DNA of 64,000 bases from contig CBFIBM010000006.1 in the NCBI GenBank assembly GCA_965660855.1, positions 1 to 64,000 on the forward strand. Direction: 5' to 3'. This DNA comes from an uncultured bacterium (GTDB taxonomy: Bacteria > Fidelibacterota > Marinisomatia > Marinisomatales > UBA1611). The position numbers and the translations under genes are program-made. Below, piece by piece: positions 13,186 to 56,978 of the stretch. The first letter of the stretch is position 1, and every line of letters begins with the position of its first letter. The notes under the pieces were generated by a model. It ran no database searches, was not told the origin of the DNA, and saw nothing but the letters and a program-made list of their open reading frames with translations.

Positions 13186-13188
13186 TTC

Positions 13189-25225: not shown

Positions 25226-26131
25226 TTGAAAAGAAGAAATTTTATAAAAACCGGAGTTATAAGTTTAACTGGAATTTCTATTTCACCGTTTATGTTATCT
25301 GCTAGAGACTGTACTCTAACATCCGCAGATATTGAAGGTCCTTATTGGTCAGAGAATCATCCAAATAGAACTATTTTAGCAAATCCTGATGAGCCTGGAA
25401 CAAGAATTTTTATTTCAGGTGTAGTATTATACAATGATTGTGAAACTCCAATAGAGAACGCAATAATTGATGTTTGGCATGCCAATGATAATGGATGCTA
25501 TACGGTATTTCAAGAATGTCAATCTGGGAATACAGATCAAGATCCATATAATTTACGGGGGTACATGAGAACAGATGAGAATGGAAATTATGCTTTTGAG
25601 TCTATTTTGCCAGGCTATTATTCAGGGCGTCCAAGGCATTTTCATTTCAAAATTACATCCCCATCTGGATTTGAACATATTACCCAATGTTACTTTCAAA
25701 ATGATCCTAGTATTGATGAAAATTGGGAAGAAAATCATCCTGGATTAATTATTCCACTCGAGGAGACAGAAAGTGGTTTCATTGGAAATTTTGATATAAT
25801 ATTAGATGAAATCTTATTAAATACAGATTATAATAATTCAAAATCATTATCTAGAAATTTCAAACTACAATTGCCCTACCCTAACCCGTTTAATAATTCT
25901 ATTAATATTCAATTTGAAATATTAAACCCAGGAAATGTTAATATTAATATCTATGATGTTAATGGTAAATGGATTACAACTTTAGTTAACAAAAATATTA
26001 GTTCTGGTATGCATTTAGTAAAATGGAATGGCCTAGATTCAAGGGGAATGGAAGTCGCATCTGGCCTCTATTTAGTCACTATGAAATTTGGAGAAAATGT
26101 AAAAACAAAGACATTGAATCTTGTTAAATAA
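25226..26131 (+). CDS. Intradiol ring-cleavage dioxygenase-like protein with Tat signal and FlgD/T9SS-like CTD
   Basis: MKRRNFIK; EGPYW, DVWHAN..GCY and PGYYSGRPRHFH (Tyr/Tyr/His/His iron ligands); PYPNPFN...ASGLYL...LVK. Confidence 0.8.
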   Translation: MKRRNFIKTGVISLTGISISPFMLSARDCTLTSADIEGPYWSENHPNRTILANPDEPGTRIFISGVVLYNDCETPIENAIIDVWHANDNGCYTVFQECQSGNTDQDPYNLRGYMRTDENGNYAFESILPGYYSGRPRHFHFKITSPSGFEHITQCYFQNDPSIDENWEENHPGLIIPLEETESGFIGNFDIILDEILLNTDYNNSKSLSRNFKLQLPYPNPFNNSINIQFEILNPGNVNINIYDVNGKWITTLVNKNISSGMHLVKWNGLDSRGMEVASGLYLVTMKFGENVKTKTLNLVK

Positions 26132-29531: not shown

Positions 29532-32300
29532 TTATTTTAAGTATAAAATTTTATGATTATTTAATTTATCATCAACTCTAATTGAAACAATATATACACC
29601 AGTTGATATAGTGTGATCGAATTGAGATTGCCCATTCCATTCAAAAGAATTATGTCCTATTTCAAGACTTAATTCTCCTGATGAAAAAATTAAACGACCA
29701 GATAAATCAAAAATATTAATAGTACCCTTAGTCGGAGACTCTGAGTAATATTTAATAATCACTTGTCCATTAAATGGATTTGGATATGAGCCAATTAAAT
29801 CAATTTTATCTGGAATTAATTTAAATTTATCAATTTTTAAATTCAGATTTTGGTTTGAAAAAGCTATTGCAGATTTAGCCTCAATAAAATATTCACCCAA
29901 ACTATCTGATGAAAGGATCAAATTTTCATTGGGTTCTAACACATTATACCATGTTCCGGAAGAAAAGAATGGAACATTTTCAACAACCCGGTCTAAGCTG
30001 GAGAAATTTGCAATTACTACTATTTGATCATTGTAATTTTCAGGTGTCTGGTATGAATAACCATAAACAATAACATTTTGGTTCGTGTAACGATAAAGAT
30101 CAAAAAAATCACCTTTAGCTATAGCTGGACTCATTTTTCTAAGTTTGATTAACTTTTTATAATGCGATAGGTGCTCCTGCCCTTCCTGAGTATCTAAAAA
30201 AGACCAATCAATTGGCCTATATTGTAGTTTCTCTTCATCATAATTACCATTATTATTGTCGTCTGTCCATCCAGTTTGCAGGCCAAACTCTTGCCCCTGG
30301 AAAATCATAGGTACACCTTGAGAAGTAAATAATAAAGTAGCATAAAATTTATCTCTAATTCGAGCTTGCTCTGGAGTAAAATCATTAAAGGTTACCATTT
30401 CTTGAATAAGTGATTGTTCATCATGACTAACCATATATTTCACAGCTTGCAATCTATTTTCATATGGGTCATCCCAGTTGGAATACTCATGCAAACCAAT
30501 TACTTGACGCATATAAGTAATTGTTGAAAAAAATTGCCCGTGAATATCATCCTTTAAACGATCATGAAAGCTATCATGCCATCCCGATGATAAATCTGTA
30601 TTTTCAATTAGCCATGGATTCGAAGGTAAATGTTCAGCTATTTGGTAAATATCAGGGTGACTATTTTTTAATATAGACGACCATGCAGGTATACCATATT
30701 CTGGCTGTTGAAGGTCCCAACCAATCATATACATTGCATCAAATCTAAACCCATCAATCTTATATTCTTCAACCCAAATATTATTTACTTGATTTATGTA
30801 GTCTATCATTCTGGGATTAAAGTGATCTAAATCCAACATTCCCCATGAACCTTCTGCCTCATTTGGATTTAATTCGGTAGAAAGTTTCACATACGGATTT
30901 AAATTGTAATCTGGTTGAATCTCCCATAAAGGACTCGACGGTCTTATATGATTCCAAATGATATCCAGTATAATTGCAATTCCTCTTTTATGAGCTTCAT
31001 CAACTAATTTTTTAAACTCAAATGGAGTTCCGTAATTCGATTCTAATGAAGAAATTAGGATAGGATCATATCCCCATGAGTGATTACCAGGAAATTCATA
31101 TATTGGGAGTAATTCTATAGCATTAATCCCTGTTGATTTTAAATGATCTAATTTTTCAATTATATCTTCAAATCGTCCTTGACCATTACCCATGGCAGAA
31201 AAGTCATCAATGTGCAACTCATAAATTACAAGAGTATCCATCAATGGGCGAATATATTCATTTGATTCCCATATATAATTATCTGCAGTTGTAACTCCTC
31301 CAGGGCCTATCTCGATACGAGTTCTATCATTAGAAATTCTTCTAGATAGAGGATCTGCTATTACTACACCCCCAGGTAAAACATATTGATATTCATAATG
31401 TCCTGTTGGCAGGTCTAGTTCAGCCCACCATAAATCTTCTTCATTTGGGTCTTTTTTCATTAATAATGGTTCTACTAATTCTCCATCAAATCCAGGTGCC
31501 CCTATTTGATATCTCATAAATGGCTGACTAGGTGCAAAAACCGATAAGTACATTGTATTATTAAACCAATTTGGCCCAAGCTTGATTCCATCAGGAATTG
31601 GCTCTTCAATGATAATAATTTCCTGCTCATTAAAAACCACATAATCTTGATTATTAATAGTTACATTGACCCAGATAGGATCATAAATACTGAGAGGGTT
31701 TGAGAATGGAATGTAAAGTACACCATTAGGATTTAAATAATCATTTCCTGATAATGTGTCATCACCAACATAATAAGTGATATTCTGAATTTCTTCAGAT
31801 GAAAATAGACCCATACTAAATCCTTCAACATTATTTTCACTATTTGTGTGTCTTTTTGGTTGAAAAAATATTGGATCTGAAATATTTAATATTGAGTTAC
31901 CATAAGCATCATTAGTTACATTAGGGTTTAAAGGATCTGAAATCCAACTATTATCCGTGCCTGAATTATTAAAATGAAAATGAAACTTATATTCGTGCTC
32001 TGATCCGATATCAAGGTTATAGCTCTTTTCATAACTATCTGTTGATGGATTATAGATCATTTCTGATAAAGCATTGGGACTAATCATCCCATTATTATTT
32101 GGTCCCCAATCATTAGCGGTTCCTGAAGGCATTGTTCCTGGAACAAACACCCTTTCAAAACTATCATTTGGTCCATTGATATACCTAAATGTGATTTCTA
32201 AAGTTTCTGAAAAAGATATAGATGCAGATAGCATTAAAAAAAGTTTTATACTTTTAACTTTATATTTTTTTGAAATTTTATTAAAAATTATATACCACAC
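29532..32300 (-). CDS. Secreted GH13 alpha-amylase family glycoside hydrolase with FlgD/T9SS-like CTD
   Basis: IYELH, IELLPI, WGYDP and DIIWNH motifs; catalytic GFRFD, IAEH and SHDE; C-terminal SYPNPFN...STGVYI...KILYLK. Confidence 0.9.
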   Translation of the reverse strand: MWYIIFNKISKKYKVKSIKLFLMLSASISFSETLEITFRYINGPNDSFERVFVPGTMPSGTANDWGPNNNGMISPNALSEMIYNPSTDSYEKSYNLDIGSEHEYKFHFHFNNSGTDNSWISDPLNPNVTNDAYGNSILNISDPIFFQPKRHTNSENNVEGFSMGLFSSEEIQNITYYVGDDTLSGNDYLNPNGVLYIPFSNPLSIYDPIWVNVTINNQDYVVFNEQEIIIIEEPIPDGIKLGPNWFNNTMYLSVFAPSQPFMRYQIGAPGFDGELVEPLLMKKDPNEEDLWWAELDLPTGHYEYQYVLPGGVVIADPLSRRISNDRTRIEIGPGGVTTADNYIWESNEYIRPLMDTLVIYELHIDDFSAMGNGQGRFEDIIEKLDHLKSTGINAIELLPIYEFPGNHSWGYDPILISSLESNYGTPFEFKKLVDEAHKRGIAIILDIIWNHIRPSSPLWEIQPDYNLNPYVKLSTELNPNEAEGSWGMLDLDHFNPRMIDYINQVNNIWVEEYKIDGFRFDAMYMIGWDLQQPEYGIPAWSSILKNSHPDIYQIAEHLPSNPWLIENTDLSSGWHDSFHDRLKDDIHGQFFSTITYMRQVIGLHEYSNWDDPYENRLQAVKYMVSHDEQSLIQEMVTFNDFTPEQARIRDKFYATLLFTSQGVPMIFQGQEFGLQTGWTDDNNNGNYDEEKLQYRPIDWSFLDTQEGQEHLSHYKKLIKLRKMSPAIAKGDFFDLYRYTNQNVIVYGYSYQTPENYNDQIVVIANFSSLDRVVENVPFFSSGTWYNVLEPNENLILSSDSLGEYFIEAKSAIAFSNQNLNLKIDKFKLIPDKIDLIGSYPNPFNGQVIIKYYSESPTKGTINIFDLSGRLIFSSGELSLEIGHNSFEWNGQSQFDHTISTGVYIVSIRVDDKLNNHKILYLK

Positions 32301-32402: not shown

Positions 32403-35400
32403 ATGACCTATTTTAGTACTTTAAAATATCATTTAATTCTTATTTTTGGTATGCATCTCGTATTAGCAGGTACGAGTGGAAAAATATCTGGGATAGTATT
32501 AGATGAAAATAATTTGCCACTCGTTGGATGTAACGTTATTGTAAAAAACACACTCTTTGGTGCCGCGACTAATATAGATGGTGAATATTATATTTTAAAT
32601 GTACCTCCAGGGAATTATGATATTTCTGCGTCCATGATTGGCTATGGTACTGTAACAATAAATAACCTACAAGTAATTGTTGATTTAACGGCTAAGGCTA
32701 ATTTTTCTTTAAAACCTCAGTCTATTTCAGGAGCAGAAATTTTTGTTACTGCAGAAAAACCAACCGTTCGTTTAGATCAAACTTCCATGTCTGCAGTCGT
32801 CAGTTCAGAGGATATTGAAAATTTACCTGTTTCTGATGTTGGGGATATTATTGAACTACAAGCTGGAATTGTTCGAGATCCTAATGGTGGTTTCCATGTC
32901 AGAGGTGGACGAAGCAGTGAAGTATCTTTCTGGGTTGATGGTGTAGCAACAACGGATTCTTATGATGGAAGCTCAGGGCTAGAGGTAGAAAATGCGGGAA
33001 TTCAAGAAGTCCAGGTTATCTCTGGAACATTTAATGCAGAGTATGGACAAGCAATGTCAGGGATTGTAAATGTAGTTACGAAAGAAGGTACTCAAAATTA
33101 CCAAGGGAATATTAATCTTTATGCTGGCGGGTATCATTCAAATCATTCAGATTTGTATTCTATATCATCACCTTTTTCTACCTGGGAATCGTTTTCAGAT
33201 ATAAACAATGATGGAAATTGGGATTATGGTGAAATTCTATATGATTTAAATAATAATGGTATCTGGGACGAAGGAGAAATATATTGGGATAAAAACGGGA
33301 ATCAAATTTGGGATGGAGATGAGGGTTCAGAACCTTTAAATGATGATTTAGGATATGATGGTTATCTTGGTGATTATTACGATTACAATGGAGATGGAAA
33401 TACCACACAACCTAGTCCTGGAGAAGGAAATGGTCGAAGAGACTGGGGCGAACATAGATTTAATCTAGACCCTAATGGATATACAAAATATTTAAATGTA
33501 TTTGAGAATATTTTCCAGCAATCTAACTTTTCAGGAAGTTTTAGTGGACCCGTACCTCTTTTAAATAAAAAGTTAACTTTCTACTCAACACTTAGATATT
33601 ATCATTCCATGGGAAGATACTATGGTAAAAAATTATTTACACCAATAGGACTTTTTGGAGATGAATCCATTGTACCACTAGACCCGTATTCTAAATTATC
33701 AACTCAATTAAAGTTAACTTATAAAATATCCTCAAGAATAAAACTTAACTACACCAACTATCTAACTGAAAAACAGTACAAGAGTTATGATAGTTTTTAT
33801 AAATACAACCCTGATGGTATTTTAAATAAATTTGAATCTGATAGATCAAATATGTTAACCCTAACACATAGTTTAAGCCAAAATACATTTTATGAACTAA
33901 AGTTTTTATCCTTTTCTAGTGGATATAATGAAAACCTTTATAATCAAAATGATATTCCATTTTCTGTAAAAATCATGAATCAAGATCAAGTTGATGCTCT
34001 GAATATAAATGATTCAATTCGAATTAGAACAGGATATGACATTTACGAAGAAAGTCCACGGTTTTTAGTAAGCCTGCAAGAAAATGGATCATATGAAGTA
34101 ATGGATTTAAGCGATCAAAAAGGCTATGTTCCCAGCGATATTTTTGTAACACCAGAGTGGTCATTTGGTATTGGGGGAACTCAAAATGGACAATTTGAAA
34201 GAAATACATCCTTTAATCAGCTAAAATTTGACCTATCTAGCCAAATTAATTCTAATAATTTCATAAAAGTTGGAATTTTATATAAAATCTACGATATGTG
34301 GGCAGATGATAAATTTCTTAATTATAAGACCAAAGGAGAATGGTCGTTGACTCAAGATGGTGATACCTTGGGATATAGTCCATTAGCTGGAGCTAGAATT
34401 ACTCCGTTTACTCCCGTTATAAACCCAACCTATACTTCTGACCACAGCTATTTTAGAGTACAGCCGCAAGAAATTTCCGCATATTTACAAGACAAAATTG
34501 AACTTGATGAGTTAATTATTAATGCTGGTTTTAGATTTGACTATTTTGATCCCAATTGGAAAATTCCAAAAGATGATGAATTACCAGGTAACTTAAAATA
34601 TTATTTAGCCGCAACACCAAACGATACATCTGTTATTTGGGAGCATGATTTTTCTAGTATGCACTCTGAGGTAATAATCATTGATTCAATCAATCAACAA
34701 GGAGCAGTTGCAATAGAAAATTTATTTATTACAGGTGTCGATTTTGACTCTTCAACTCAGTCTTATCAAAATGCTTTTGATGCAAAGTTATCATCCTATA
34801 GAAATTCCCACAGATGGTCCTATGGCTATACAAGTGTAAAACCAACTTATCAAATCAGTCCTAGAATAGGAATTGCATATCCGATAACGGATAAAGGTGT
34901 AATTCATGTTTCCTATGGCCATTTTTTCCAGGTGCCAAACTTTAGTCTTCTCTATGAAAATCCAGAATTTGAAATAACAGATAGTAACAATGGCGGAATT
35001 CTTGGTAATGGAGCTTTGAAACCTGAAAAAACTGTTATGTATGAAATTGGATTTAAACAAGAAATAGCCCCTAGAACTGCTTTAGATTTGACTATTTTTT
35101 ATAGAGATACAAGAGACTGGGTTGGCGTTTCTACGGCAATTAAAAAATATCCAGTTGGAAATTATAGAAAATATGAAAATAAAGATTACGCAAATACTCG
35201 AGGGTTTACATTAATACTTGACCGTCAGTTCACTAATGGATTTGGTGGTGGTGTAGATTATACATGGATGGTTGCTGAAGGGACATATTCTAATCCTCAA
35301 GATGCATATTTTGATGCTCAGGACAATCAAGCTCCAAGGCTGAATATGCTCCCCTTAGATTGGGATCAAACACATACCTTAAATTTTAGAGCAACGCTTG

Positions 35401-35804
35401 GAAAGAACGATTGGGTGATTAGTTCCATTGGTAAATTATGGTCCGGTAAACCCTATACTCCTGTATTCAAAACTGGTGTAGTTTCTGGCGCAGGAGCATT
35501 CGCAGGGTTTGCAGATAATAGCGAGCGTAAGCCAAATATTTTCACCTTAGATATTCGAGCATCCTATAAACTAACCTTTTTAGGTTTAAACTCAAATTTA
35601 TACTGTAACATTTACAATTTATTTGATCTCAGAAATGAATTTTCTGTTTGGGAAGATACAGGAAGATCTGATTATACTCTTATTGCAAAAGATGTTCCTT
35701 TAATCGATTCTGGAAGAATTGGTCATTTAACTGAGCATTTATTAAAACCTGATTGGTATGGAGAACCAAGAAAAGTAAATATTGGATTGGAACTGCAGTT
35801 TTAA
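32403..35804 (+). CDS. TonB-dependent receptor (non-SusC type) with an acidic DxNxNG-repeat insertion
   Basis: AGTSGKISG N-domain; HVRGGRSSEV and SGTFNAEYGQAMSGIVNVVTKEG plug motifs; C-terminal PRKVNIGLELQF. Confidence 0.92.
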   Translation: MTYFSTLKYHLILIFGMHLVLAGTSGKISGIVLDENNLPLVGCNVIVKNTLFGAATNIDGEYYILNVPPGNYDISASMIGYGTVTINNLQVIVDLTAKANFSLKPQSISGAEIFVTAEKPTVRLDQTSMSAVVSSEDIENLPVSDVGDIIELQAGIVRDPNGGFHVRGGRSSEVSFWVDGVATTDSYDGSSGLEVENAGIQEVQVISGTFNAEYGQAMSGIVNVVTKEGTQNYQGNINLYAGGYHSNHSDLYSISSPFSTWESFSDINNDGNWDYGEILYDLNNNGIWDEGEIYWDKNGNQIWDGDEGSEPLNDDLGYDGYLGDYYDYNGDGNTTQPSPGEGNGRRDWGEHRFNLDPNGYTKYLNVFENIFQQSNFSGSFSGPVPLLNKKLTFYSTLRYYHSMGRYYGKKLFTPIGLFGDESIVPLDPYSKLSTQLKLTYKISSRIKLNYTNYLTEKQYKSYDSFYKYNPDGILNKFESDRSNMLTLTHSLSQNTFYELKFLSFSSGYNENLYNQNDIPFSVKIMNQDQVDALNINDSIRIRTGYDIYEESPRFLVSLQENGSYEVMDLSDQKGYVPSDIFVTPEWSFGIGGTQNGQFERNTSFNQLKFDLSSQINSNNFIKVGILYKIYDMWADDKFLNYKTKGEWSLTQDGDTLGYSPLAGARITPFTPVINPTYTSDHSYFRVQPQEISAYLQDKIELDELIINAGFRFDYFDPNWKIPKDDELPGNLKYYLAATPNDTSVIWEHDFSSMHSEVIIIDSINQQGAVAIENLFITGVDFDSSTQSYQNAFDAKLSSYRNSHRWSYGYTSVKPTYQISPRIGIAYPITDKGVIHVSYGHFFQVPNFSLLYENPEFEITDSNNGGILGNGALKPEKTVMYEIGFKQEIAPRTALDLTIFYRDTRDWVGVSTAIKKYPVGNYRKYENKDYANTRGFTLILDRQFTNGFGGGVDYTWMVAEGTYSNPQDAYFDAQDNQAPRLNMLPLDWDQTHTLNFRATLGKNDWVISSIGKLWSGKPYTPVFKTGVVSGAGAFAGFADNSERKPNIFTLDIRASYKLTFLGLNSNLYCNIYNLFDLRNEFSVWEDTGRSDYTLIAKDVPLIDSGRIGHLTEHLLKPDWYGEPRKVNIGLELQF

Positions 35805-35806
35805 AC

Positions 35807-38800
35807 ATGAAAAAAATCTTAGCTATCATAATATTTATTTTTGTTTGTTCGACCTCTAAACTTTATTCGACATCAAAAGGAAACTCTCTATCACGAGCAA
35901 AAAATAACCACTCTGGAAATAAAGTAAGAACTACCTTTTATAATTACGGACTTATTGGGCGATGGACAAGCGAGCCTGAAGATATAGGCGGTGAGTGGCC
36001 AATCAATTCTGGGCATGAATATATTGGTGATGTTGGTCATATGGTTGGTTCAGAATTTAAAGATTTAGATGGTAATGAGAAAAAAAGTGTAATTACAATT
36101 GATAATCCGCGCGGGAGTGAATTCAATCTAGATACTCATTGGGGTTGGGAGCCATTACCTGGATATAATAATCCAGATACAACACTTGTTGCCATGAGTC
36201 ATATGGGACCATCAGAAAATCCAGATTATAAAAATAACACTTGGCCTAACCAGTGGCCTGATAAACTTGAAGACCCACTTGATCCAGGCTGGCCAGATTC
36301 TTGGAATGGATATTTTGGTAAAAATCAAAAGAATGCTGAGCAGGAAAGTTTTTTTGTTATGGATGATGCTCAAGATGCAGAATTTTTCTATTATCCTGAT
36401 TCTAACGATTTACAAAGACGTGGAATGGGTCTAAGATGTACTCAGAGAGGACTTCAATGGAATCATATTTTAGCTGAGGATGTTTTATTTTGGCTTTATG
36501 ATATAAAAAATATAAGTGATTATGATATTGAGAAAATGGTTTTTGGATATATCGTTGGAACCATCACCGGAGGAGATGGTGATAGTGGAGATGATTGGGC
36601 AGATTTTGAGAAAGAAGATGATATTGCTTACTCCTATGATAATGGAACTGATTTAGAAACTGGCTTAGGCGGTGTCGGTGCAAGTGGTTGGTCACCAGTT
36701 GGGCTTGCGGGATATGCCTTTCTTGAAAGCCCTGGAAACCCATATGATGGAATTGATAATGATGGAGATGGATCAGATGGATCCGGACTTACTTTGTCAG
36801 AAGATATTTTCTCAGCAAGAACTTATAACATTGGCGATACTGTTGTAGTCATAAATTATCAAACATATGAAAGAACATTAATCTCAATGCCTGCTGAAGG
36901 AATTATTGTTCAAAAGTCAGATAAAGAGTATGCCTTCCTCCCCGGCTCTAGCTTAGAAGAAATACCCAGAAATTTAATTGATGATAATTTGAATGGACTT
37001 ATCGATGAGAATAATGGTGCATCCGTAGAGATTGCTCCTGGGGTTTTTGAAGATTTATATTTGTATTTTGACCCAATTTCAGGAGAAGGATTAAAATACA
37101 TTGACTACTTTAATGGTATTGGTTTATCAAATAACTTAATTGATGAAAGTCGTGAAGATGGAATTGATAATGATGGAGATTGGAATATTGCTACTGATGA
37201 TGTGGGCATAGACGGTATGCCGGGAAGTAATGATCTTGGTGAGGGAGATGGAGTTCCAACTTCTGGTCGCGGTACTGAATTACCTGGAGAACCCAATATC
37301 GATAAAACAGATGTTGATGAATCTGATCAGATAGGATTATCTAGTTTTTATTATTTTAATTTTGGAGTAGGCCCTCAGATGAATGATGATAATAGATTAT
37401 GGGAAGAAATGTTACCGGGTTATTTTAATAATGCTGTTTCAAATACCGATGCTGATTTTTTATTTAGCTCTGGTTATTTCCCATTACAAAAAGATTTAAC
37501 AGAAAGATTTTCAATATCATTATTATTTGGAGATAATCTTCCTGATCTAATTCGTAATAAACAGACTGTACAAACTATATATAATCAAAATTATAATTTT
37601 GCTAAAGCTCCTGATCTTCCAACTTTAAGTTCATATGCTGGAGATGGGTATGTAACAATTTATTGGGATAATGCCGCAGAATTTTCAGTTGATAGAATAA
37701 CCGGAGAAGACTTTGAAGGCTACAAGATTTATAAGGCAACAAATACTCAGTTTACGGATGCGGGAGTGGTAACTGATGCATTTGGAACAGCAAAATTTAA
37801 TATTCCAATTAAACAATATGACCAAATAAATGAATATGAAGGCTTCTTCCCTGGTCATGTAGATGGAATACAATTTTATCTTGGTAGCAATGATGGACTT
37901 GTTCATTCATGGACGGATACAAATGTTATTAATGGCCATCGCTACTTCTATGCCGTAACCGCTTATGATCACGGATCAATTGAAAAAGAAATTCTTCCTG
38001 CTGAAACCTCTAAATTCGTTACTATGGACAGAGGAGGTAATATTATCACTGGTAAAAATGTCATATCCGTGATACCTGATGCTCCGGCATTAGGCTATAT
38101 ACCAGCACCTGATGAAAAATTTGTTTATCCAGTCGGTACACCAATTGGAACAGGTACTCTAAAGGTCAAAACTATTGACCCATCAAAGATTCCTGATAAT
38201 AATACCTACAGAATATATTTTAAAGATACAAAAATGAATGGAATTGATGATGATGGAGATTGGTCAGTAGAAATCCATGATGTTGGTAGCGATGGATGTA
38301 GTGATAATTTTGAGGATGGTTTTGGTGGGTGCTATGATGAAGCTAATTTAGATGCTGAAGACTTAAATCAAGATAACTGGAATGATTGTGGATCTGATGG
38401 AGTATGTAATCAAGATGAGCCTGGATTTAATCCCATTGAAAATCCAGACCCAAACAATGATGACTATGATTATAATATGAATCCTACTGGAAATGAAAAT
38501 AATAACAGATATGATTTAGGTGAGAATACTGAGGCCAATGGTTTTCCTGACAATGGTGAACCAAATATTGATGAAAGTGACTTAGAAGAAGCAATTCCTA
38601 TTACAACTCAATTTATGATACTAAACATCACAAATGAGTCTGACTTGGATACTGTTGTTTTTTGGAATGATAATTTAGATAGTGATTTAGGACAATTTGA
38701 TGGTATGGTTTTAGAAATTCAAAACCAAAATACTATTAGATTAGATCAAGAACGATCCCATTTTTATCCACAGACAGATACAGACTATTCATTTAATATT

Positions 38801-39775
38801 TCTCCATTCAATTTTGGGGGGATTGAAACTCAAGGAGTTAGATATCCTCGAAGCTATGGTATTGTTTTTTCAGATACAGCAATTCATAAGACTCTACCTG
38901 TGGTTGTCAAAAGAACGAATGGTCAGAACCTAACTATCGATTCTTCTAGAGCTAATTTTTATATCATAGATTTAGATAATCCAGATTTAAATATAGATAT
39001 TGCCGTGATTGATCAAAGTTGGTCCTATTATAGTTTAGCGACTGGATTACCTGATTCTGTACCTATAGATTCCATCATAAATAGTAAATTTTATTTAAAT
39101 CCTGATGAATTTAACGATTTTAATATTATTGATACCGTTTTAGGTACATGGTCAGATATTGGTTTTGCTCCGTCAAGTTTTGGTAGTAATTATGCATTGA
39201 AAGTGACTCTTGCAAAGCCAGGGCATTTTTCTTATTCTGATAGGATTATCATTTTAGAAAATGTGAAGGATACATCCATAGTTACATGGAATATTACACC
39301 AGGTCACGATAATATTTCTGGGCAAAAAACTCCATCCCATGGTGATACTTTATCATTATTCATGACCAAACCGTTCTCCAGCGCAGATGTCTATGAATTC
39401 GTATCTGAAGGCCATTCACTCGAAGAAAAAAATATAGATTTTTTATCAAAAAATATAAAAGTTGTTCCTAATCCTTATATTGTTGCAGCTAGTTGGGAAG
39501 GACAAAACCCTTATGCTGATGGTAGAGGACCTCGGTCTATTCATTTCACACATTTACCACCTCAATGTAAGATCCAAATTTTTACTTTAGCCGGAGAGCT
39601 TGTAAATACTTTAATCCATGATACGAGTATCGATGATGGATCTTATGAATGGAATATGCTAACAAAAGATAATCTAGATATTTCATATGGGCTTTATTTC
39701 TTTCATGTTGAACCCATAAATAGTGAAATAAATTCTTTCACGCCTCATCTTGGAAAATTTGCTGTTATAAAATGA
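35807..39775 (+). CDS. Large (1322-aa) secreted TBDR-associated protein with acidic Ca-binding-like repeats, an Fn3-like region and a variant CTD
   Basis: ATG 35807 (MKKILAIIIF signal peptide) lies 2 nt after the TBDR stop (the track started at 35753); DGIDNDGD repeats; FEGYKIYK...YFYAVTAYD; C-terminal IKVVPNPY...IFTLAGELV...GLYFFHVE...GKFAVIK. Confidence 0.85.
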   Translation: MKKILAIIIFIFVCSTSKLYSTSKGNSLSRAKNNHSGNKVRTTFYNYGLIGRWTSEPEDIGGEWPINSGHEYIGDVGHMVGSEFKDLDGNEKKSVITIDNPRGSEFNLDTHWGWEPLPGYNNPDTTLVAMSHMGPSENPDYKNNTWPNQWPDKLEDPLDPGWPDSWNGYFGKNQKNAEQESFFVMDDAQDAEFFYYPDSNDLQRRGMGLRCTQRGLQWNHILAEDVLFWLYDIKNISDYDIEKMVFGYIVGTITGGDGDSGDDWADFEKEDDIAYSYDNGTDLETGLGGVGASGWSPVGLAGYAFLESPGNPYDGIDNDGDGSDGSGLTLSEDIFSARTYNIGDTVVVINYQTYERTLISMPAEGIIVQKSDKEYAFLPGSSLEEIPRNLIDDNLNGLIDENNGASVEIAPGVFEDLYLYFDPISGEGLKYIDYFNGIGLSNNLIDESREDGIDNDGDWNIATDDVGIDGMPGSNDLGEGDGVPTSGRGTELPGEPNIDKTDVDESDQIGLSSFYYFNFGVGPQMNDDNRLWEEMLPGYFNNAVSNTDADFLFSSGYFPLQKDLTERFSISLLFGDNLPDLIRNKQTVQTIYNQNYNFAKAPDLPTLSSYAGDGYVTIYWDNAAEFSVDRITGEDFEGYKIYKATNTQFTDAGVVTDAFGTAKFNIPIKQYDQINEYEGFFPGHVDGIQFYLGSNDGLVHSWTDTNVINGHRYFYAVTAYDHGSIEKEILPAETSKFVTMDRGGNIITGKNVISVIPDAPALGYIPAPDEKFVYPVGTPIGTGTLKVKTIDPSKIPDNNTYRIYFKDTKMNGIDDDGDWSVEIHDVGSDGCSDNFEDGFGGCYDEANLDAEDLNQDNWNDCGSDGVCNQDEPGFNPIENPDPNNDDYDYNMNPTGNENNNRYDLGENTEANGFPDNGEPNIDESDLEEAIPITTQFMILNITNESDLDTVVFWNDNLDSDLGQFDGMVLEIQNQNTIRLDQERSHFYPQTDTDYSFNISPFNFGGIETQGVRYPRSYGIVFSDTAIHKTLPVVVKRTNGQNLTIDSSRANFYIIDLDNPDLNIDIAVIDQSWSYYSLATGLPDSVPIDSIINSKFYLNPDEFNDFNIIDTVLGTWSDIGFAPSSFGSNYALKVTLAKPGHFSYSDRIIILENVKDTSIVTWNITPGHDNISGQKTPSHGDTLSLFMTKPFSSADVYEFVSEGHSLEEKNIDFLSKNIKVVPNPYIVAASWEGQNPYADGRGPRSIHFTHLPPQCKIQIFTLAGELVNTLIHDTSIDDGSYEWNMLTKDNLDISYGLYFFHVEPINSEINSFTPHLGKFAVIK

Positions 39776-40782
39776 TAATTCTTTCAAAAAATCTAATACT
39801 TATTTTTTTTACATTTGAGTTACTGTTTTCTCAATCGGTTACAAAAACTGGCACTACTGCGGGACAGTTCTTAAAAATTGGTGTTGGAGCAAGAGCGCTG
39901 GGAATGGGAAGTGCTTTTTCGTCTGTTGCTGGTGATGGTTCATCTCTGTATTGGAACCCAGCTGGAATTTCTAGACTCAAAAAAAATCAGATCATATTTG
40001 ATCACCAAGATTGGATATTAGATGTTGATTTAGATTTTATTGGAGCATCATTTAAAACTCCGTTCGGAACTATTGCTGCGGCGATAAATACCATGCATAT
40101 GGGTGAGATGGAAGTAACAACTACTCATAATCCTGAGGGAACTGGAGAGAAATTCAATGTAGGTTCAATTATGGGACAGCTAACATTTTCGAAATTACTT
40201 ACCGATAGATTTTCTTTTGGGATATCCACAAAGTACATACAAGAAACCATATATAATTCAAAAGCAACGGGACTAGCTATAGATCTCGGTACCCTTTATT
40301 ATACCCAAATTGAAGGACTTAAAATGGGCATGAGTATTTCAAACTATGGTACTAAGATGAAAATGAGTGGTAGAGATTTATTATTGCAAACAGAGGTAGA
40401 TCCTAGTTTAGAATCTGACCCTACAAATATAAATGCTAATTTTGAAACGGATCGGTTTGAACTCCCATTAATTTTCAGATTTGGCGTTTCTTATGAAAAA
40501 TCACTATTAACTGATTTTGATATTTTGATTGCAGCAGATGCCTTGCATCCAAATGATAATACTGAAAGTATTAACCTTGGATCAGAAATATCATATAAAA
40601 ATTTCTTATTTATTAGATCTGGAATTTCAAATCTTTTTCAAAATGATCGTATTTCAGAGGAGTCTTTTGGCCTAGGTATTAAGGTAAAATTAGCCAACTC
40701 ATTTTACCTGATCGATTATTGCTATCAAAATATGGGACCATTAGGTAATCCCAAAAAAGTGACGCTTACCACACTATTTTAG
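39772..40782 (+). CDS. PorV/FadL-like outer-membrane beta-barrel protein
   Basis: GTTAGQFLKIGVGARALGMGSAF...LYWNPAG N-terminal signature; C-terminal Phe; ATGA overlap with the upstream gene. Confidence 0.85.
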   Translation: MIILSKNLILIFFTFELLFSQSVTKTGTTAGQFLKIGVGARALGMGSAFSSVAGDGSSLYWNPAGISRLKKNQIIFDHQDWILDVDLDFIGASFKTPFGTIAAAINTMHMGEMEVTTTHNPEGTGEKFNVGSIMGQLTFSKLLTDRFSFGISTKYIQETIYNSKATGLAIDLGTLYYTQIEGLKMGMSISNYGTKMKMSGRDLLLQTEVDPSLESDPTNINANFETDRFELPLIFRFGVSYEKSLLTDFDILIAADALHPNDNTESINLGSEISYKNFLFIRSGISNLFQNDRISEESFGLGIKVKLANSFYLIDYCYQNMGPLGNPKKVTLTTLF

Positions 40783-40942: not shown

Positions 40943-43900
40943 ATGAAAATGTTAAATATTTTTAAGCATATTTTTGGTCTTACACTTCTCACCTTTTCAG
41001 TTTATGGTGCGAATGTAACTTTCCATGTAGATATGCAATTTGAAACTGTAACCAATGGTGTTTACCTTGCCGGTGGAGATGCGGGTAATCCAGGTTATGA
41101 GATGACTGATGAAGATGGAGACAACATCTATTCATTAACAATAGAATTAACACAAGAAGCGTACGGAGATTGGTTTGGTTACAAATTTGTCAATGGACCT
41201 ATCGATGCTGGATGGCAAGGTGCTTGGGAAGTTGTTCCAAATGCTTGTGGTTTTGGAGAACACGCAGATAGACGAGCTGCAGTTCTTGAAGATAATTATG
41301 AATTACCTCCCGTAGTATTTGGCGACTGTTCACCTGACGGACAAACAACCATGGTGTTTAGGGTAGATATGCAATATGAAGAAGTTTCCATTGATGGAGT
41401 TTGGCTTGCTGGCGGAACTGCTGGTAATCCTGGTTTTCCTATGTTTCCAGGTGAAAATGGTATATGGTCTAGAACTCTAAGTATCAATGAAAACACAGCG
41501 TTCACTTATAAATTTGTGAATGGAATGATTGATGCAGGTTGGCAAGGTGCCTGGGAAGAAGTACCTGATGCATGTGGAGTTGGTGACTTTAATGATCGTT
41601 CCGTTGATGTTGGGACAGAAGATACGACCCTACCCGCGATTGTTTTTGGAACATGTGATGAAGCGGTTACAGAAGTTGATGTAACATTTCATGTCGATAT
41701 GCAACACGAAGAAGTTTCTACAGGCGGTGTATGGCTAGCCGGTGGAAATGCTGGTAACCCTGGATTTGAGATGAATGATGGAGATGGTGATGGAATCTAC
41801 TCTCTTGTTTTAACATTAGGTATAAACAGTACATTTGGTTATAAATTTTCAAATGGGCCTATCAACCCAGATTGGTCAGGTGGATGGGAGGAAGTCCCTT
41901 TAGCTTGTGCATTTGGAGACTTTGCCGATCGTTCAGTATCTGTCGGAATTGCTCCACTAGAGCTACCTCCAGTTGTTTTTGGTGAATGTACTGCAGATGG
42001 TGCTGTTCTTGTTACATTCCAAGTAGATATGCAAAATGAAGTTCTCATTGATGGAACGGTATGGTTAGCGGGTGGAAATGCTGGAAATCCTGGTTATCAA
42101 ATGATGAATGAAGGTGGTGGCAGTATATATTCCCATACGTTAGTACTTGGTAGTGGAACTAATTTTGGGTATAAATTTGTGAATGGTCCTATTGATGCTG
42201 GTTGGAATGGTGCATGGGAAGAAGTACCTGCAGCTTGTGCATTTGGAGACTTCGCTGATCGTCAGGTTACCATCATTGAAGCAGATATGTTATTACCTCC
42301 CGTTGCATTTGGTTCCTGTGATCCAATACCCGTTGAATCAGCGACAGTTACTTTCCAAGCTGACATGAGTAATTTAATAGCCCAAGGATGGAATGGTGAA
42401 ACCAGCACAATGAATGTTATGGGTATGTTAACAAATTGGGGCGATGGTGCAATAATGATAGAAGATCTTGTTAACCCGAGCATTTACACATTTACAACAG
42501 AACCAATAACTGCACCGGTCGGTTCACTTCACGAATGGAAATTTAAAGCCTTCTCTGAAGCAGTATCTTTTACAAATGGTGGCTGGGAAGTAGGCGAGAA
42601 TTTTATTTTAGAATTCACTGGTGAAGATATTATTTTAGAACCAATGGTTCCAAGAATTAATATTTTAGGTGAGCTTGCTAATGCAGTTACTGTAGATATT
42701 CATGTAACATGGAATGAGGGAACTCTGAACGTTAATACTGGGGAGCCATTTCCTGAAACTCCTGACACACTTATAATGAATGGTGATTTTCTTAATGGTT
42801 GGGGAACTTGGGGTGATTGTATGGGGGCTGATTGTGCTACGCCGGTAGGACCAGCTTCTAATATTCCAAGACTTACAGACTCAGATGGAGATGGTATTTA
42901 TACAGGTACACTTGAACTACCTGCTGGACATGGAAATGTGTTAACTTACAAGCTAGGTGCATATTACCCTGGTGTTGAGAATACAGCAGATGTTGCAACT
43001 AATGGTGCTATGGATAATGAAGGAGGATTTGGCGCTGATAAGATTTTTATCATACCAACTTCTACTGATGAAAATATTGCTCTTGAAACAGTATTTGGAG
43101 ATAATAATCCTCTAAATCCATTTTTACCTGTACAAATAACTTTTCATTTAGATATGAGAGATCATCAAGTATCTGATGATGGTGTGCATGTTGCAGGGAC
43201 AATCAATAGCTGGAGCACAACGGCTACTCCTTTACATGACGAGGATGGTGATGGAATCTATATCGGGCATGCAGAAGCAACCCCCGGAGATACTATTTAC
43301 TACAAATTTTTAAATGGAAACTCATGGGGAACTGATGAAGCCGTTCCAGATCCTTCATGTGGTGGAGCAGGTGGATATGGTTCCGATAGATTTTATCATG
43401 TGCCGCAAGGTGACTCTGACATTCCTCTAGTCTGTTTTGGTGAATGTATAACATGTGAAGAATCCTATGTAACATTCCATGTGGATATGTCTGAAGTAGA
43501 GTCTATATCCGAAAATGGTGTTTTTGTTGGCGGTGGAGTTTTCTACCCTGACTTTCATTTAATGGAAGAAGTTGATGAAAATTTATATGCTTTAAAAACT
43601 GTTCTTCCAGAAGGAACTCATCTTTATAAATTTAATAATGGTGGTACAGATGCCACTTATGAAGATGGCGGAGCATTATCAGCTGAAGGCTGTGGAGTAG
43701 GTGCTTACAACGATCGTGAAATCCTGGTTGGTGAATTAGATATGATGACTGAACCATTTTGTTATAGTTCATGTTATACATGTAGCGGCGGTGTTGATCC
43801 AGTGGAAGCAAATGTAACTTTCTCAGCTGACATGAGTATTTTACTAGCGCAAGGGTGGGATATGGAAACTTACTCAATGAATATTATGGGTACTCTCACA

Positions 43901-44896
43901 AATTGGGATACGGGTCTCCCTATGGCGCCTGATCTTATTGATCCTAACATATATTCATTGACTGCTACAGTTTTAGCAATTCCTGGAAGTATGCAAGAAT
44001 GGAAATTCAGAGCATTCCCAGGTGAAAATTTCACAAATGGTGGTTGGGAGGTTGGATCTAACCATATTGTAGAATTCACTGGAGAAGATCTTGTATTAGA
44101 AACAATGGTTCCAAACATTAATATAACAGGTGAACTATTAAATAATGTTACCGTAGATATTCATGCATTGTGGAGACCAGGTGTTTATAATGTAAATACT
44201 GGAGAGGTATTTCCAGAAGTACCTGATACATTAATCATGAATGGTGATTTCCTGAATGGATGGGGAACTTGGGGTGACTGTATGGGGGCTGATTGTGCTA
44301 CGCCAGCAGGACCAGCTTCTAGTATCCCAAGACTTACAGATTTAGATGGAGATGGTATATATACTGGTACACTAGAACTGCCTCTTGGACATGGAAATAT
44401 ATTGACCTACAAGTTAGGTGCATATTATGCAGGGGTAGAAAATACAGCCGATCTTGCTGAAAATGGTGCTATGGATAATGAAGGTGGGTTTGGTGCTGAT
44501 AAAATTTTTGTCATCAATCCATCTACTAGTGGAACAATTGTCTTAGAAACAGTTTTTGGTGATAATAATCCAATGAACGATGCTTTATCAACGGATAATA
44601 ATTTTGGTTTCATGCCAAAAGAATTTGCCCTGTTAGGCAACTATCCTAATCCATTTAATCCAGTTACTACCTTACAATTTGATTTAGATTACTTATCCAA
44701 TGTAAAAGTAACTGTATTTAATATTGCAGGTAATGAAGTAGTCACGCTTAAAGAAGGTGAGTTAGAACCAGGAAGACATTCTATTCAATGGAATGCTTCA
44801 AATAATTCTGGTCAAAAAGTACCTTCAGGTCTCTACTTATATAGAGTTACCTCAGATAATAGAACACTTACAGGTAAAATGTTATTATTAAAATAA
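40943..44896 (+). CDS. Secreted multi-module beta-sandwich (putative carbohydrate-binding) protein with FlgD/T9SS-like CTD
   Basis: Signal peptide; repeated VTFxVDM...DGDGIY...YKF modules rich in Trp; duplicated two-domain block; NYPNPFNP...SGLYLY...KMLLLK; no catalytic motif recognised. Confidence 0.8.
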   Translation: MKMLNIFKHIFGLTLLTFSVYGANVTFHVDMQFETVTNGVYLAGGDAGNPGYEMTDEDGDNIYSLTIELTQEAYGDWFGYKFVNGPIDAGWQGAWEVVPNACGFGEHADRRAAVLEDNYELPPVVFGDCSPDGQTTMVFRVDMQYEEVSIDGVWLAGGTAGNPGFPMFPGENGIWSRTLSINENTAFTYKFVNGMIDAGWQGAWEEVPDACGVGDFNDRSVDVGTEDTTLPAIVFGTCDEAVTEVDVTFHVDMQHEEVSTGGVWLAGGNAGNPGFEMNDGDGDGIYSLVLTLGINSTFGYKFSNGPINPDWSGGWEEVPLACAFGDFADRSVSVGIAPLELPPVVFGECTADGAVLVTFQVDMQNEVLIDGTVWLAGGNAGNPGYQMMNEGGGSIYSHTLVLGSGTNFGYKFVNGPIDAGWNGAWEEVPAACAFGDFADRQVTIIEADMLLPPVAFGSCDPIPVESATVTFQADMSNLIAQGWNGETSTMNVMGMLTNWGDGAIMIEDLVNPSIYTFTTEPITAPVGSLHEWKFKAFSEAVSFTNGGWEVGENFILEFTGEDIILEPMVPRINILGELANAVTVDIHVTWNEGTLNVNTGEPFPETPDTLIMNGDFLNGWGTWGDCMGADCATPVGPASNIPRLTDSDGDGIYTGTLELPAGHGNVLTYKLGAYYPGVENTADVATNGAMDNEGGFGADKIFIIPTSTDENIALETVFGDNNPLNPFLPVQITFHLDMRDHQVSDDGVHVAGTINSWSTTATPLHDEDGDGIYIGHAEATPGDTIYYKFLNGNSWGTDEAVPDPSCGGAGGYGSDRFYHVPQGDSDIPLVCFGECITCEESYVTFHVDMSEVESISENGVFVGGGVFYPDFHLMEEVDENLYALKTVLPEGTHLYKFNNGGTDATYEDGGALSAEGCGVGAYNDREILVGELDMMTEPFCYSSCYTCSGGVDPVEANVTFSADMSILLAQGWDMETYSMNIMGTLTNWDTGLPMAPDLIDPNIYSLTATVLAIPGSMQEWKFRAFPGENFTNGGWEVGSNHIVEFTGEDLVLETMVPNINITGELLNNVTVDIHALWRPGVYNVNTGEVFPEVPDTLIMNGDFLNGWGTWGDCMGADCATPAGPASSIPRLTDLDGDGIYTGTLELPLGHGNILTYKLGAYYAGVENTADLAENGAMDNEGGFGADKIFVINPSTSGTIVLETVFGDNNPMNDALSTDNNFGFMPKEFALLGNYPNPFNPVTTLQFDLDYLSNVKVTVFNIAGNEVVTLKEGELEPGRHSIQWNASNNSGQKVPSGLYLYRVTSDNRTLTGKMLLLK
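42341..44572 (+). repeat. Intragenic duplication: ~42341-43111 resembles ~43808-44572
   Basis: Near-identical DNA stretches (e.g. ggggaacttggggtga(t/c)tgtatgggggctgattgtgctacgcc) encode DTLIMNGDFLNGWGTWGDCMGADCATP twice. Confidence 0.85.
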
Positions 44897-44916
44897 GATA
44901 ACAATACCTCATTACT

Positions 44917-44948
44917 AAAAAAAAGGGGAGCTAGCTCCCCTTTTTTTT
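44917..44948. terminator. Intrinsic terminator, potentially bidirectional
   Basis: Perfect 32-bp palindrome A8-GGGGAG-CTAG-CTCCCC-T8 after the 1317-aa gene. Confidence 0.9.
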
Positions 44949-44973
44949 GTTCATTTTGAAAGTAAAATTATTC

Positions 44974-46278
44974 ATGTTTAAAATCCGATTACCTTTCCTA
45001 ACCTCTTTTATTATAATTTTTCTTAATTGTGAAAATCCAATAGATACGAATACTCTAGTTAAGGTTGGCTCTAGGACCATTACAAAAAATGATTTTATTG
45101 AAGCCTATTCAAAAAGGTTAATTCAGTCTAAGATTAAAGATTCAAATTTTGAGCGTGACAGAGTATTAAATCAATTAATAAGAGTAAAATTATTTTCTGA
45201 AGCAGCAAAACTGTCAAATATAAAGTTAGATTCAATAGGTAAAAATAGAGTACAAATATATGAGGAAATTGCACTAAGAGATCAATTATATGATGAAATC
45301 ATATTACCGATTAACATTGATATTTCTGATTCGATCGCGAGATTACATTACGAGTGGAAGAATACTGAGATTCACCTCTCGCATCTTTTTCATAACGATA
45401 AAACAGTACTTGATACGATTCTTCCATACCTTAAAAACGATACATCACAATTTAAGTTATTCTCCAGCGAACTCTTCAAGAATAAAAATTTAAAAAAATC
45501 TGGTGGTAATTTGGGTTGGATTAAGTATGACGATTTAGATCCTAACTTAGAAGAGAATGCATTTTCTATTCCCTATGATATCCCCTCTGGACCTTTTAGA
45601 TCTAGTTATGGTTGGCATATCCTATTAAAAAAAAATTCAAGGAAACAAATGATTTTAGATGAAAATCATTATCAACATATTAAAAATAAATTAAATAATG
45701 ATATTTTAAAAAAAAAGAGACAGATATATGCAAACAACTATATTAATAATCTTCTAGAAAAAGATGTTTCCATTGATGACTCTATCACTTATGAAATTTT
45801 AAACAAAATAAATACAATAGTTTTTACTAAAAATAAAATTAAACTAAATAATAATCATGAAATTTCAAAAAAATTTAAAAATATTATTTTAGGATTAAAA
45901 TCAAATGAAAAAACAATCTTAGCAAAATTCCCAGGCGGTGAATTTACTGTAAATGACTTACTAAATAATTTAAGAACAATAAACCCTGAATTATTTTTAA
46001 AGAACCCAGTCCAACAATTTTATAAATCCTTAAGAGATAAAATATTAACTGAAAAAGCTAAATTTAAAAATCTGGGAGAGCACCCCTCTGTTAAGTTGAA
46101 AATTCAATCAAAAATTGATGAAAATCTTGCAAGGCAATACTTACTTATGAACTCTTCAAATCAAAAAGATACACATTTTTCAAAAGAAGAATTAGAAAAT
46201 TTAGTTGAAAACTTAAAATCTAAAATTCCTATAACTCATCATACAAAGAATCAAAACAAACTATTTAATACTTTATAG
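44974..46278 (+). CDS. Parvulin-type peptidyl-prolyl isomerase (SurA/PrsA-like) lipoprotein
   Basis: HLSHL, GGNLGWI and SGPFRSSYGWHIL motifs; lipobox-like FLNC. ATG 44974 preferred because the track's TTG overlaps the terminator T-run. Confidence 0.8.
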   Translation: MFKIRLPFLTSFIIIFLNCENPIDTNTLVKVGSRTITKNDFIEAYSKRLIQSKIKDSNFERDRVLNQLIRVKLFSEAAKLSNIKLDSIGKNRVQIYEEIALRDQLYDEIILPINIDISDSIARLHYEWKNTEIHLSHLFHNDKTVLDTILPYLKNDTSQFKLFSSELFKNKNLKKSGGNLGWIKYDDLDPNLEENAFSIPYDIPSGPFRSSYGWHILLKKNSRKQMILDENHYQHIKNKLNNDILKKKRQIYANNYINNLLEKDVSIDDSITYEILNKINTIVFTKNKIKLNNNHEISKKFKNIILGLKSNEKTILAKFPGGEFTVNDLLNNLRTINPELFLKNPVQQFYKSLRDKILTEKAKFKNLGEHPSVKLKIQSKIDENLARQYLLMNSSNQKDTHFSKEELENLVENLKSKIPITHHTKNQNKLFNTL

Positions 46279-56197: not shown

Positions 56198-56208
56198 TGA
56201 TGTTTTAC

Positions 56209-56829: not shown

Positions 56830-56978
56830 GAGGTAATAGATAAGTTTATAATTGCTTTTCCATCCCAAACAACAGATTGTGGATATATATTTTTTTTATG
56901 GCTATTTAAACGTGATACAGCACGTAGCACTTCAAAGGATGGTTTCTTTTTATCTTTTCTTTTTTTCAAATATTTCAT
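56826..56978 (-). CDS. Unannotated 50-aa basic protein, first gene of the lexA cassette
   Basis: MKYLKKRKDKKKPSFEVLRAVSRLNSHKKNIYPQSVVWDGKAIINLSITS; lies between the promoter and lexA; its TGA overlaps the lexA ATG. Confidence 0.6.
   Translation of the reverse strand: MKYLKKRKDKKKPSFEVLRAVSRLNSHKKNIYPQSVVWDGKAIINLSITS

Follow-up and report, generated by a model that had tools for sequence, protein, structure and literature searches.

Three adjacent plus-strand genes in a 64,000-nucleotide stretch of DNA from an uncultured bacterium of the Fidelibacterota (GenBank assembly GCA_965660855.1, contig CBFIBM010000006.1, positions 1 to 64,000; hereafter the window) encode a TonB-dependent receptor (TBDR; 32403..35804, 1133 aa), a large secreted protein, here termed the partner (35807..39775, 1322 aa), and an outer-membrane barrel (39772..40782, 336 aa). 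Together they form a real and widespread three-gene outer-membrane module that is apparently undescribed; no description of the triad was found in a literature search, most subscription papers and supplements being outside its coverage. The partner ends in a variant of the C-terminal domain (tail) of type IX secretion system (T9SS) substrates, and on balance, with modest confidence, we favor the reading that the barrel holds the partner at the cell surface, in the manner of PorQ and PorZ, as the capture subunit of the importer. Such a module would work like SusC/SusD without being a member of that system. An initial annotation of the window had described the three genes as tightly coupled, and the reading frames and junctions are as it claimed: a 2-nt gap separates the TBDR from the partner (TAA-AC-ATG), and partner and barrel overlap in ATGA. 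The partner starts at the ATG at 35807, the upstream TTG at 35753 overlapping the end of the TBDR gene and being an unlikely start. Metatranscriptome contigs from four runs span the triad and bridge both junctions, which proves neither a single transcript nor DNA-free RNA, and the four studies may stem from one campaign. A promoter scan was uninformative (97 sites against 96 expected).

The arrangement was surveyed in 75 loci from GTDB, 80 metagenome loci, and 30 regions of four whole genomes, the last chosen around tails and barrels (G, L, and C numbers denote genomes, loci, and contigs, G000 being the source genome). Gene calls were corrected where long antisense reading frames masked real genes (L019, L026, L141, L170, L179, L180, L183). 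Among partners with a visible upstream gene, a TBDR lies directly upstream in 66 of 68 GTDB and 63 of 66 metagenome cases, and in the remaining five the upstream gene is the barrel. Directly downstream of complete partners, the barrel is found in 54 of 59 GTDB and 63 of 67 metagenome cases; the nine others comprise four with the barrel upstream, two in which another TBDR comes next, two that end close to the edge of a contig or to what looks like a frameshift, and L144. Thus the neighborhood predicted by the initial annotation is conserved, and separate profiles for the two kinds of tail tie the variant tail to the barrel as it had anticipated. None of 145 standard-tail genes in the fetched loci is directly followed by a barrel. 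In the source genome, where some genes lie at contig ends, the barrel directly follows four of five variant tails as opposed to one of 79 standard tails, and that one is atypical. In the single-contig genomes G016 and G026, 12 of 19 variant tails have a barrel no more than 250 bases away, versus 1 of 145 standard tails among the matches listed (150 of 162 standard matches, five of them from G023); one of the 14 variant entries of G026 matches TIGR04183 and was dropped as a standard tail, and a Fisher's exact test was set aside because genes of one genome are not independent. Across the whole-genome regions, a TBDR and a barrel are present for all 33 variant-tail genes. Because of these neighbor counts, the association of the triad is beyond chance.

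The variant tail occurs in all 61 sampled genomes of the source phylum, with 1 to 28 matches each, and, in the phylum to which G062 belongs, in 54 of 101 genomes. Record titles of the loci include Marinimicrobia, KSB1, Calditrichota, Ignavibacteria, WOR-3, and Delongbacteria. Three genomes of 0.9–1.1 Mb (G023, G031, and G039) retain exactly one variant-tail gene. In G023 (L132, G023:C4:115000-134999) this single copy belongs to a complete triad surrounded by genes for purine synthesis and MgtE, and no sugar enzyme was recognized there. At several loci a barrel is shared by two partner genes or stands several genes off (L108, L130, L116, L126, L131). A rearranged operon recurs (L116, L126, L131, G000:C30/C32/C50), in which a variant-tail gene of ~715–740 aa is followed by one or more other genes, a gene of ~500 aa, a TBDR, a barrel, and a gene of ~450 aa. 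Three partner bodies, a small number, carry a standard tail (L057 twice, L065) and have neither a TBDR nor a barrel nearby. Such natural tail swaps, full-length partner bodies on a standard tail, are seen at L057:9977-16616, L065:9977-13543, and L201, the last lacking flanks; L187 matches L065 in tail and length.

The variant tail (39425..39775) contains the motifs that had been quoted for it, IKVVPNPY, an insertion, IFTLAGELV, GLYFFHVE, and GKFAVIK, and all six proteins of the window with which it had been contrasted carry the YPNPFN-type tail (5330-6829, 23471-25123, 25226-26131, 29532-32300, 40943-44896, and a gene with its 3′ end at 63748). In a model of partner residues 761–1322 (predicted local distance difference test, pLDDT, 81), the tail has a leading helix, seven strands, and an insert of ~22 residues after VVPNPY, and the stretch before it is modeled as an ordered helix (pLDDT ~87). 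Structural comparison was made for the variant tail, standard tails serving as sequence controls. Of 48,161 chains compared, the PorZ tail ranks first (5m11; Z 12.1, root-mean-square deviation (rmsd) 2.3, 90 aligned residues, 26% identity), which is the closest solved structure and on which Foldseek agrees, followed by the tails of PorU (Z 8.7) and mirolase (Z 7.5). A PorZ model is weakly matched by 48 of 49 variant versus 21 of 46 standard tails, and the best PDB match of the standard-tail profile is 8glj_D, named a Por secretion sorting-domain protein. In PorZ and PorU the tail is retained, and the two proteins remain on PorQ and PorV, respectively (PMC10947112, PMC10202324).

The type A models TIGR04183 and PF18962 have no match in the partner of the window. 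They match 43 of 49 variant tails weakly (E up to 1, best 2.6e-5) versus all 46 standard tails (best 2e-15); the type B model TIGR04131 is weakly matched by 3 of 49 and CHU_C by 44 of 49 variant tails (best 1.7e-5). The two kinds of tail are homologous (hhalign 97%). Among 85 proteins of the source genome that score on either profile, five tails are variant, 79 standard, and one intermediate. The intermediate tail belongs to a PorZ homolog (G000:C24:1553-3901, L217; 170 of 260 bits), the only non-partner protein of that genome that scores higher on the variant (22.9) than on the standard profile (20.5). Of 15 orthologous loci compared, 13 show stronger conservation in the variant tail than in the standard tail of the neighboring protein. 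A separate tail class linked to an adjacent PorV-family barrel is thus supported.

The barrel had been called PorV-like, and it scores 169 bits on the PorV/PorQ family model NF033709, well over the cut-off of 90; its profile retrieves the PorV structure 6h3i (E 1.4e-30). All 59 aligned triad barrels match NF033709 at E 0.001, and none of them matches the PorP/SprF model TIGR03519 at that threshold. On the individual family models, the barrel reaches 88.7 bits for PorQ (NF033711, cut-off 220) and 57.5 bits for PorV (NF033710, cut-off 250). These cut-offs are strict for this phylum, since the presumed general PorV of G026 reaches only 211 bits. The barrel is not the general PorV of the source genome, in which eight genes score above the PorV-family cut-off. 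Of the T9SS translocon and attachment parts that were searched for, that genome also encodes SprA, in two pieces on two contigs, two PorU proteins above the cut-off, and the PorZ homolog. The two PorU genes (G000:C29:2390-6097 and C2:154474-157545) have near-duplicate neighborhoods, and the barrels on C32 and C50 share an N-terminus, possibly reflecting two strains mixed in the assembly or a real duplication. At G000:C23:167-7095, a protein of 1364 aa whose tail is atypical overlaps one of 945 aa that has a PorV-family barrel domain at its start, perhaps another dedicated cargo–barrel pair.

The TBDR consists of an N-terminal extension, a plug, and a barrel (PF13620/PF07715/PF00593), with a lineage-specific Asp-rich insert near residues 260–350, as judged from alignment occupancy. 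It is a non-SusC receptor, as had been proposed: it scores 53 bits on the SusC model TIGR04056 (cut-off 368) and has no match to the SusC signature TIGR04057 at E 0.01. As a control, the SusC-like gene of the window (13189-16386) scores 321 and 42.9 bits on the two models. The receptors of the triads form a distinct clade. In four genomes, 29 full-length matches score at least 533 bits on the clade profile and other TBDRs at most 174; the profile was built with 20 of the 29, and the remaining nine score 533–1020. All 29 full-length clade members in these genomes, matched by hand, are located in regions with a partner and a barrel. A complex prediction for the TBDR barrel of the homologous locus L024 (residues 222–896) with its own PorV-like barrel gave 0.24 against a mark of 0.32, which speaks neither for nor against a contact.

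The partner bears a signal peptide (~residues 1–21) and no lipobox, and has no Pfam or NCBIfam family at E 0.01. A reading of Cys14 as the lipoprotein cysteine was rejected, because it lies outside any lipobox and is not kept at that position in the 29 nearest homologs; a lipobox-like pattern occurs in 2 of 60 partners by a pattern test, no signal-peptide predictor being applied. This agrees with the original call of a secreted non-lipoprotein. The family is large (3972 homologs among 8000 candidates scored), and its nearest named members belong to Candidatus Neomarinimicrobiota. Searches of the partner profile against PDB sequences returned nothing credible, Foldseek with the 1200-residue partner model returned FN3/Ig-like matches only, at low TM-scores, and the 30 nearest clusters in the ESM Atlas share no common Pfam family.

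An AlphaFold2 model of residues 22–1221 (pLDDT 83) begins with a β-supersandwich and linker helix (residues 22–599, 35870..37603), for which VIA-align gave Z 17–19, rmsd ~3, and 240–270 aligned residues, with 7–12% identity in the top five (8rf9, Z 19.3, rmsd 3.2, 259 aligned; 9ju0, Z 19.2; 1ulv, Z 18.6). The modeled N-terminal part is thus like the non-catalytic N-terminal domain of GH15/GH65/GH94/GH116 enzymes; their catalytic (α/α)6 barrel is absent from the models over residues 22–1322, which have only short scattered helices. No SusD/RagB domain is recognized in the partner by Pfam or NCBIfam, and the confident model is mostly β-sheet. The partner is thus neither SusD-like nor a recognizable enzyme, either of which would have spoken against the initial proposal. 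Within the supersandwich, an Asp/Gly-rich insertion (residues 312–508, 36740..37330, defined from the model and alignment occupancy), possibly calcium-binding, is mostly missing from short paralogs. The next domain (residues 600–761, 37604..38089) is called FN3-like from its strand pattern, conservation, and Foldseek matches, and is the most conserved body domain across distant paralogs. Those of ~670–770 aa retain chiefly the supersandwich, the FN3-like domain, and the tail; a short example is L109, with a TBDR of 982 aa, a partner of 668 aa, and a barrel of 331 aa. A variable β-rich middle region (residues 762–1206, 38090..39424), with a poorly modeled Asp-rich insert inside, has weak Ig-like matches only (7c7z, Z 8.7).

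Distance tables for the TBDR, partner body, tail, and barrel correlate with one another across 61 triads (Spearman 0.82–0.90) and, among 20 paralogs of four genomes, the same four distance tables give 0.34–0.59. Partial correlations at equal alignment length, whose intervals overlap, are 0.41 for tail–barrel, 0.37 for TBDR–body, 0.33 for body–tail, 0.27 for TBDR–barrel, 0.23 for TBDR–tail, and 0.21 for body–barrel. Tail–barrel exceeds tail–TBDR in 93.5% of equal-length subsamples, and body–TBDR exceeds body–barrel in 91%. Partner and TBDR agree in their nearest neighbor in 14 of the 20 paralogous triads. The pattern fits, if weakly, a putative arrangement in which the tail goes with the barrel and the body with the TBDR.

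Building on gene order, family assignments, the tail class, predicted folds, joint inheritance, and locus context, we suggest that the triad is an outer-membrane uptake module, for alpha-glucans at this locus. The partner, judging from its signal peptide and tail, would be exported via Sec and then by the T9SS. The co-encoded PorQ/PorV-family barrel would collect the PorZ-like tail uncut and anchor the partner on the surface as PorQ does for PorZ, a protein-to-barrel anchor in place of the lipid anchor of SusD. The partner would then cooperate with the TBDR of the same triad, probably within a single complex, in capturing or gating oligosaccharides presumably made and bound by the neighboring GH13 and CBM-repeat proteins; it may serve as a lid on the TBDR, as the initial annotation had imagined. 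A broader reading, quite possible but one to which we give somewhat less than even chances, is that of an ancient second uptake architecture in FCB-group phyla: a stable trimer whose lid, substrate-specific and secreted by the T9SS, is held on the TBDR by a dedicated PorQ-like barrel reading a third kind of T9SS tail, which would be the main importer design in SusD-poor phyla and of which one copy is kept even at ~1 Mb.

Several observations weigh against the anchored-capture reading. The tail–barrel, partner–TBDR, and TBDR–barrel contacts are hypothetical. The barrel scores fall far under the PorQ and PorV cut-offs, and the two models tie in L024 (91.6, 92.1). The PorZ likeness is no proof that the tail is retained, because the tail of mirolase, an ordinary cargo, is also closest to the PorZ and PorU structures and a PorZ-like hairpin did not prevent cleavage of RgpB, as stated in PMC11285876. 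Supersandwich folds are common, and the matches to this one reach no more than 13% identity. Co-variation is weak evidence, because operon linkage alone yields joint inheritance; a raw TBDR–barrel partial correlation of 0.52 was rejected as a sign of contact, since it drops to 0.27 once alignment lengths are equalized. Counts on the GTDB loci are partly circular, as the profiles derive from them; those on the other two sets are not. L144 has no barrel in 5.7 kb downstream, and in the whole genomes the barrel directly follows only 23 of 33 variant genes, one-to-one pairing failing in 10 of 33. Many paralogous loci show no recognizable sugar enzyme among 83 flanking proteins scanned, which include peptidases, housekeeping proteins, and unknowns.

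Among the alternatives, the one that survives best, though we think it unlikely, is that the barrel anchors the partner by its tail while the partner stays off the TBDR and works on its own, as a binding protein at the surface, an adhesin, or a scaffold merely co-regulated with the importer. All of the tail–barrel evidence fits this equally well, two partners share a TBDR at L108 and L130, and the standard-tail bodies without a TBDR at L057 and L065 imply that the body can work alone. The TBDR is, however, a steadier neighbor of the partner than the barrel is (129 of 134 versus 117 of 126 in the two large sets), its clade is found only with partner and barrel (29 of 29), and the body follows the TBDR more closely than the barrel in 91% of subsamples.

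A shade less likely still is that the barrel is a dedicated shuttle only, SprF-like or PorV-like, which pulls the partner from SprA; thereafter the tail would be cut off, or the partner would be transferred to the TBDR or lipopolysaccharide. Type B cargo needs cognate barrels encoded downstream, which show crosstalk, as PMC12618676 reports; barrels are shared at some triad loci; and the source genome has two PorU homologs above the cut-off. Against this, the closest structure to the tail is that of the uncleaved PorZ tail, the stretch before the tail is modeled as an ordered helix, the tail is more conserved than the neighboring standard tail, and dedicated barrels have been shown or proposed to be lasting anchors (PMC9143113, PMC10202324). 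The evidence thus favors a PorQ–PorZ-like anchor over a PorV-like shuttle. Of the "private shuttle or anchor" originally proposed, the anchor is the part favored, and "private" is overstated because some barrels serve two partners or sit several genes away.

It is improbable that the partner modifies the substrate before import, as a surface enzyme (mutarotase-, epimerase-, or lyase-like) with its active site in the supersandwich: aldose 1-epimerase-like and lyase domains do share the fold (Z 12–13.5) and several Asp, Glu, and Trp residues are near-invariant in close homologs, but the best matches are non-catalytic N-domains with the linker helix (Z 17–19), the catalytic helical barrel is missing, no enzyme family is matched, and across 20 divergent paralogs no His or Glu reaches 70% conservation. 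Just as improbable is that partner and barrel serve mainly to assemble or stabilize receptors of this clade, much as BamG/BamH do for BamA, or to support some housekeeping import that has nothing to do with glycans, the sugar loci having merely recruited the unit; every sampled genome of the phylum has at least one copy and three of 0.9–1.1 Mb exactly one, the G023 copy lies among purine-synthesis and MgtE genes, and the related FadL-type barrel BamG carries a canopy at the surface next to a larger barrel (PMC12611786), but up to 28 matches in one genome and the nearest neighbors shared by partner and TBDR in 14 of 20 paralogous triads fit substrate-specific pairs better than a general assembly factor.

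Under the anchored-capture reading, the module resembles several known systems in part. As in the SusC/SusD (RagA/RagB) pairs and utilisomes of polysaccharide utilization loci in Bacteroidota, an N-terminally extended TBDR is followed by the gene for a surface partner, in a glycan locus with binding proteins and hydrolases, and paralogous copies are numerous per genome. SusD is a lipoprotein with a TPR-type fold; by contrast, the partner is a β-rich, T9SS-tailed non-lipoprotein, the TBDR fails the SusC models, and the unit contains a third gene for a barrel. With the PorQ–PorZ and PorV–PorU pairs of the T9SS attachment complex, the triad shares a PorV/PorQ-family barrel, a PorZ-like tail structure, and a dedicated barrel for an atypical tail, whereas the body of its partner has no relation to either PorZ or PorU, partner and barrel come with a TBDR and in multiple copies per genome, and the source genome has PorZ, PorU, and PorV-like genes apart from the triad. 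The SprB/SprF (PorP) analogy drawn initially fits in its logic: as for type B cargo (SprB–SprF, PG1035–PorP–PorE), the barrel gene lies directly downstream of its cargo, with cognate pairing and some sharing, and such cognate barrels are required for secretion (PMC12618676). It does not extend to family membership, as the 59 triad barrels lack a PorP/SprF match; furthermore, TIGR04131 is matched by only 3 of 49 tails, and a TBDR is present. BamG–BamH of the Bacteroidota BAM complex likewise has a FadL-type barrel holding a surface subunit beside a larger barrel, but BamH is a lipoprotein held by its N-terminus, the large barrel of the triad is a TBDR, and the triad barrel scores 26 of 250 bits on the BamG model.

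The partner had also been proposed to replace SusD. This holds per locus only, because the window contains a SusC-like/SusD-like pair (11848-16386, minus strand; TIGR04056 321 bits, PF07980 24.3 bits) and 28 of 35 genomes with one to six SusD matches carry the variant tail. The SusD-like gene of this pair is the only SusD match in the source genome, in which both importer designs thus coexist. Of five Marinisomatota genomes, two have one SusD match and three have none. Across the 101 genomes, the variant tail is found in 0 of 17 with at least seven SusD matches, in the 28 of 35 mentioned, and in 26 of 49 with none, in a cross-tabulation made by hand with a threshold chosen afterwards and among related genomes that are not independent. 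Strict mutual exclusion with SusD was accordingly rejected, and the module is independent of SusD without excluding it.

The genes flanking the triad point to a putative role in alpha-glucan use. Divergent to it lies a GH13 alpha-amylase-family enzyme with a standard tail (29532..32300, minus strand; PF00128, PF18962), and downstream follow a 1317-aa CBM20/CBM48-like repeat protein with a standard type A tail (40943..44896, plus strand; PF00686 30 bits, cut-off 23.3; PF18962, TIGR04183), which may have a SusE/F-like role, and a GH97 glycosidase (46282..48408, minus strand; PF10566/PF14508/PF14509). The orthologous locus L001 adds an SSF transporter, a glucan phosphorylase, GH77, and TrmB; of these, the phosphorylase, GH77, and TrmB were not found in the source genome, which is 84% complete. 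With a TBDR clustered with carbohydrate-active enzymes and a binding protein, and with transport and regulation genes in L001, the locus is a polysaccharide utilization locus in the broad sense. Between the CBM-repeat and GH97 genes lie a terminator-like hairpin (44916..44949, plus strand; a consensus match only) and a parvulin-type peptidyl-prolyl isomerase, probably a lipoprotein (44947..46278, plus strand; PF00639). Isomerase-like genes occur in 28 of 62, 16 of 71, and 3 of 26 partner loci, a frequent but not obligate neighbor. In the four metatranscriptome assemblies, contig depths are ~36–78 for the CBM-repeat gene and 1–13 over the triad, a measure that cannot rank genes.

A complete paralogous triad in the source genome (G000:C7:68238-88621; L216, L218) sits in a beta-glucan-type locus with GH3, a LacI-type regulator, an SSF transporter, two GH16 genes, and GH5, and the unit is therefore reused with other substrates. 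Partial paralogs lie at contig ends (C54, C63, C47, C9, C15, C32, C50). A triad-like layout, possibly an instance of the module, can be seen in Table 1 of PMC6987092, where the xylan locus of Rhodothermus marinus lists a TBDR (Rmar_1070), a por-tailed hypothetical protein (Rmar_1071), and a hypothetical protein (Rmar_1072), followed by a separate SusC/SusD pair; Rmar_1070–1072 are not discussed there as a unit. In PMC13543919, a term search for PorV, T9SS, and type IX returned nothing.

Marinisomatota and similar abundant uncultured groups have many glycan enzymes and few SusC/SusD pairs, and locus predictors based on SusC/SusD would probably miss uptake loci of the present kind. The triad provides a searchable marker for such loci and a testable idea of polymer capture. 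If the proposed mechanism is correct, type IX secretion would be directly linked to nutrient import, and a widespread tail class with dedicated barrels would be added, one that bears on what decides whether T9SS tails are cut or kept.

Two further gene groups of the window were observed on the minus strand. At 48479-51974, a second non-SusC TBDR (814 aa) precedes a probable lipoprotein of 353 aa that matches no family, a third importer layout. At 52011-56868, a LexA-like gene, judged as such from its sequence, a DNA polymerase IV-like gene, and a DnaE-like gene stand in a row and look like a damage-inducible mutagenesis cassette.

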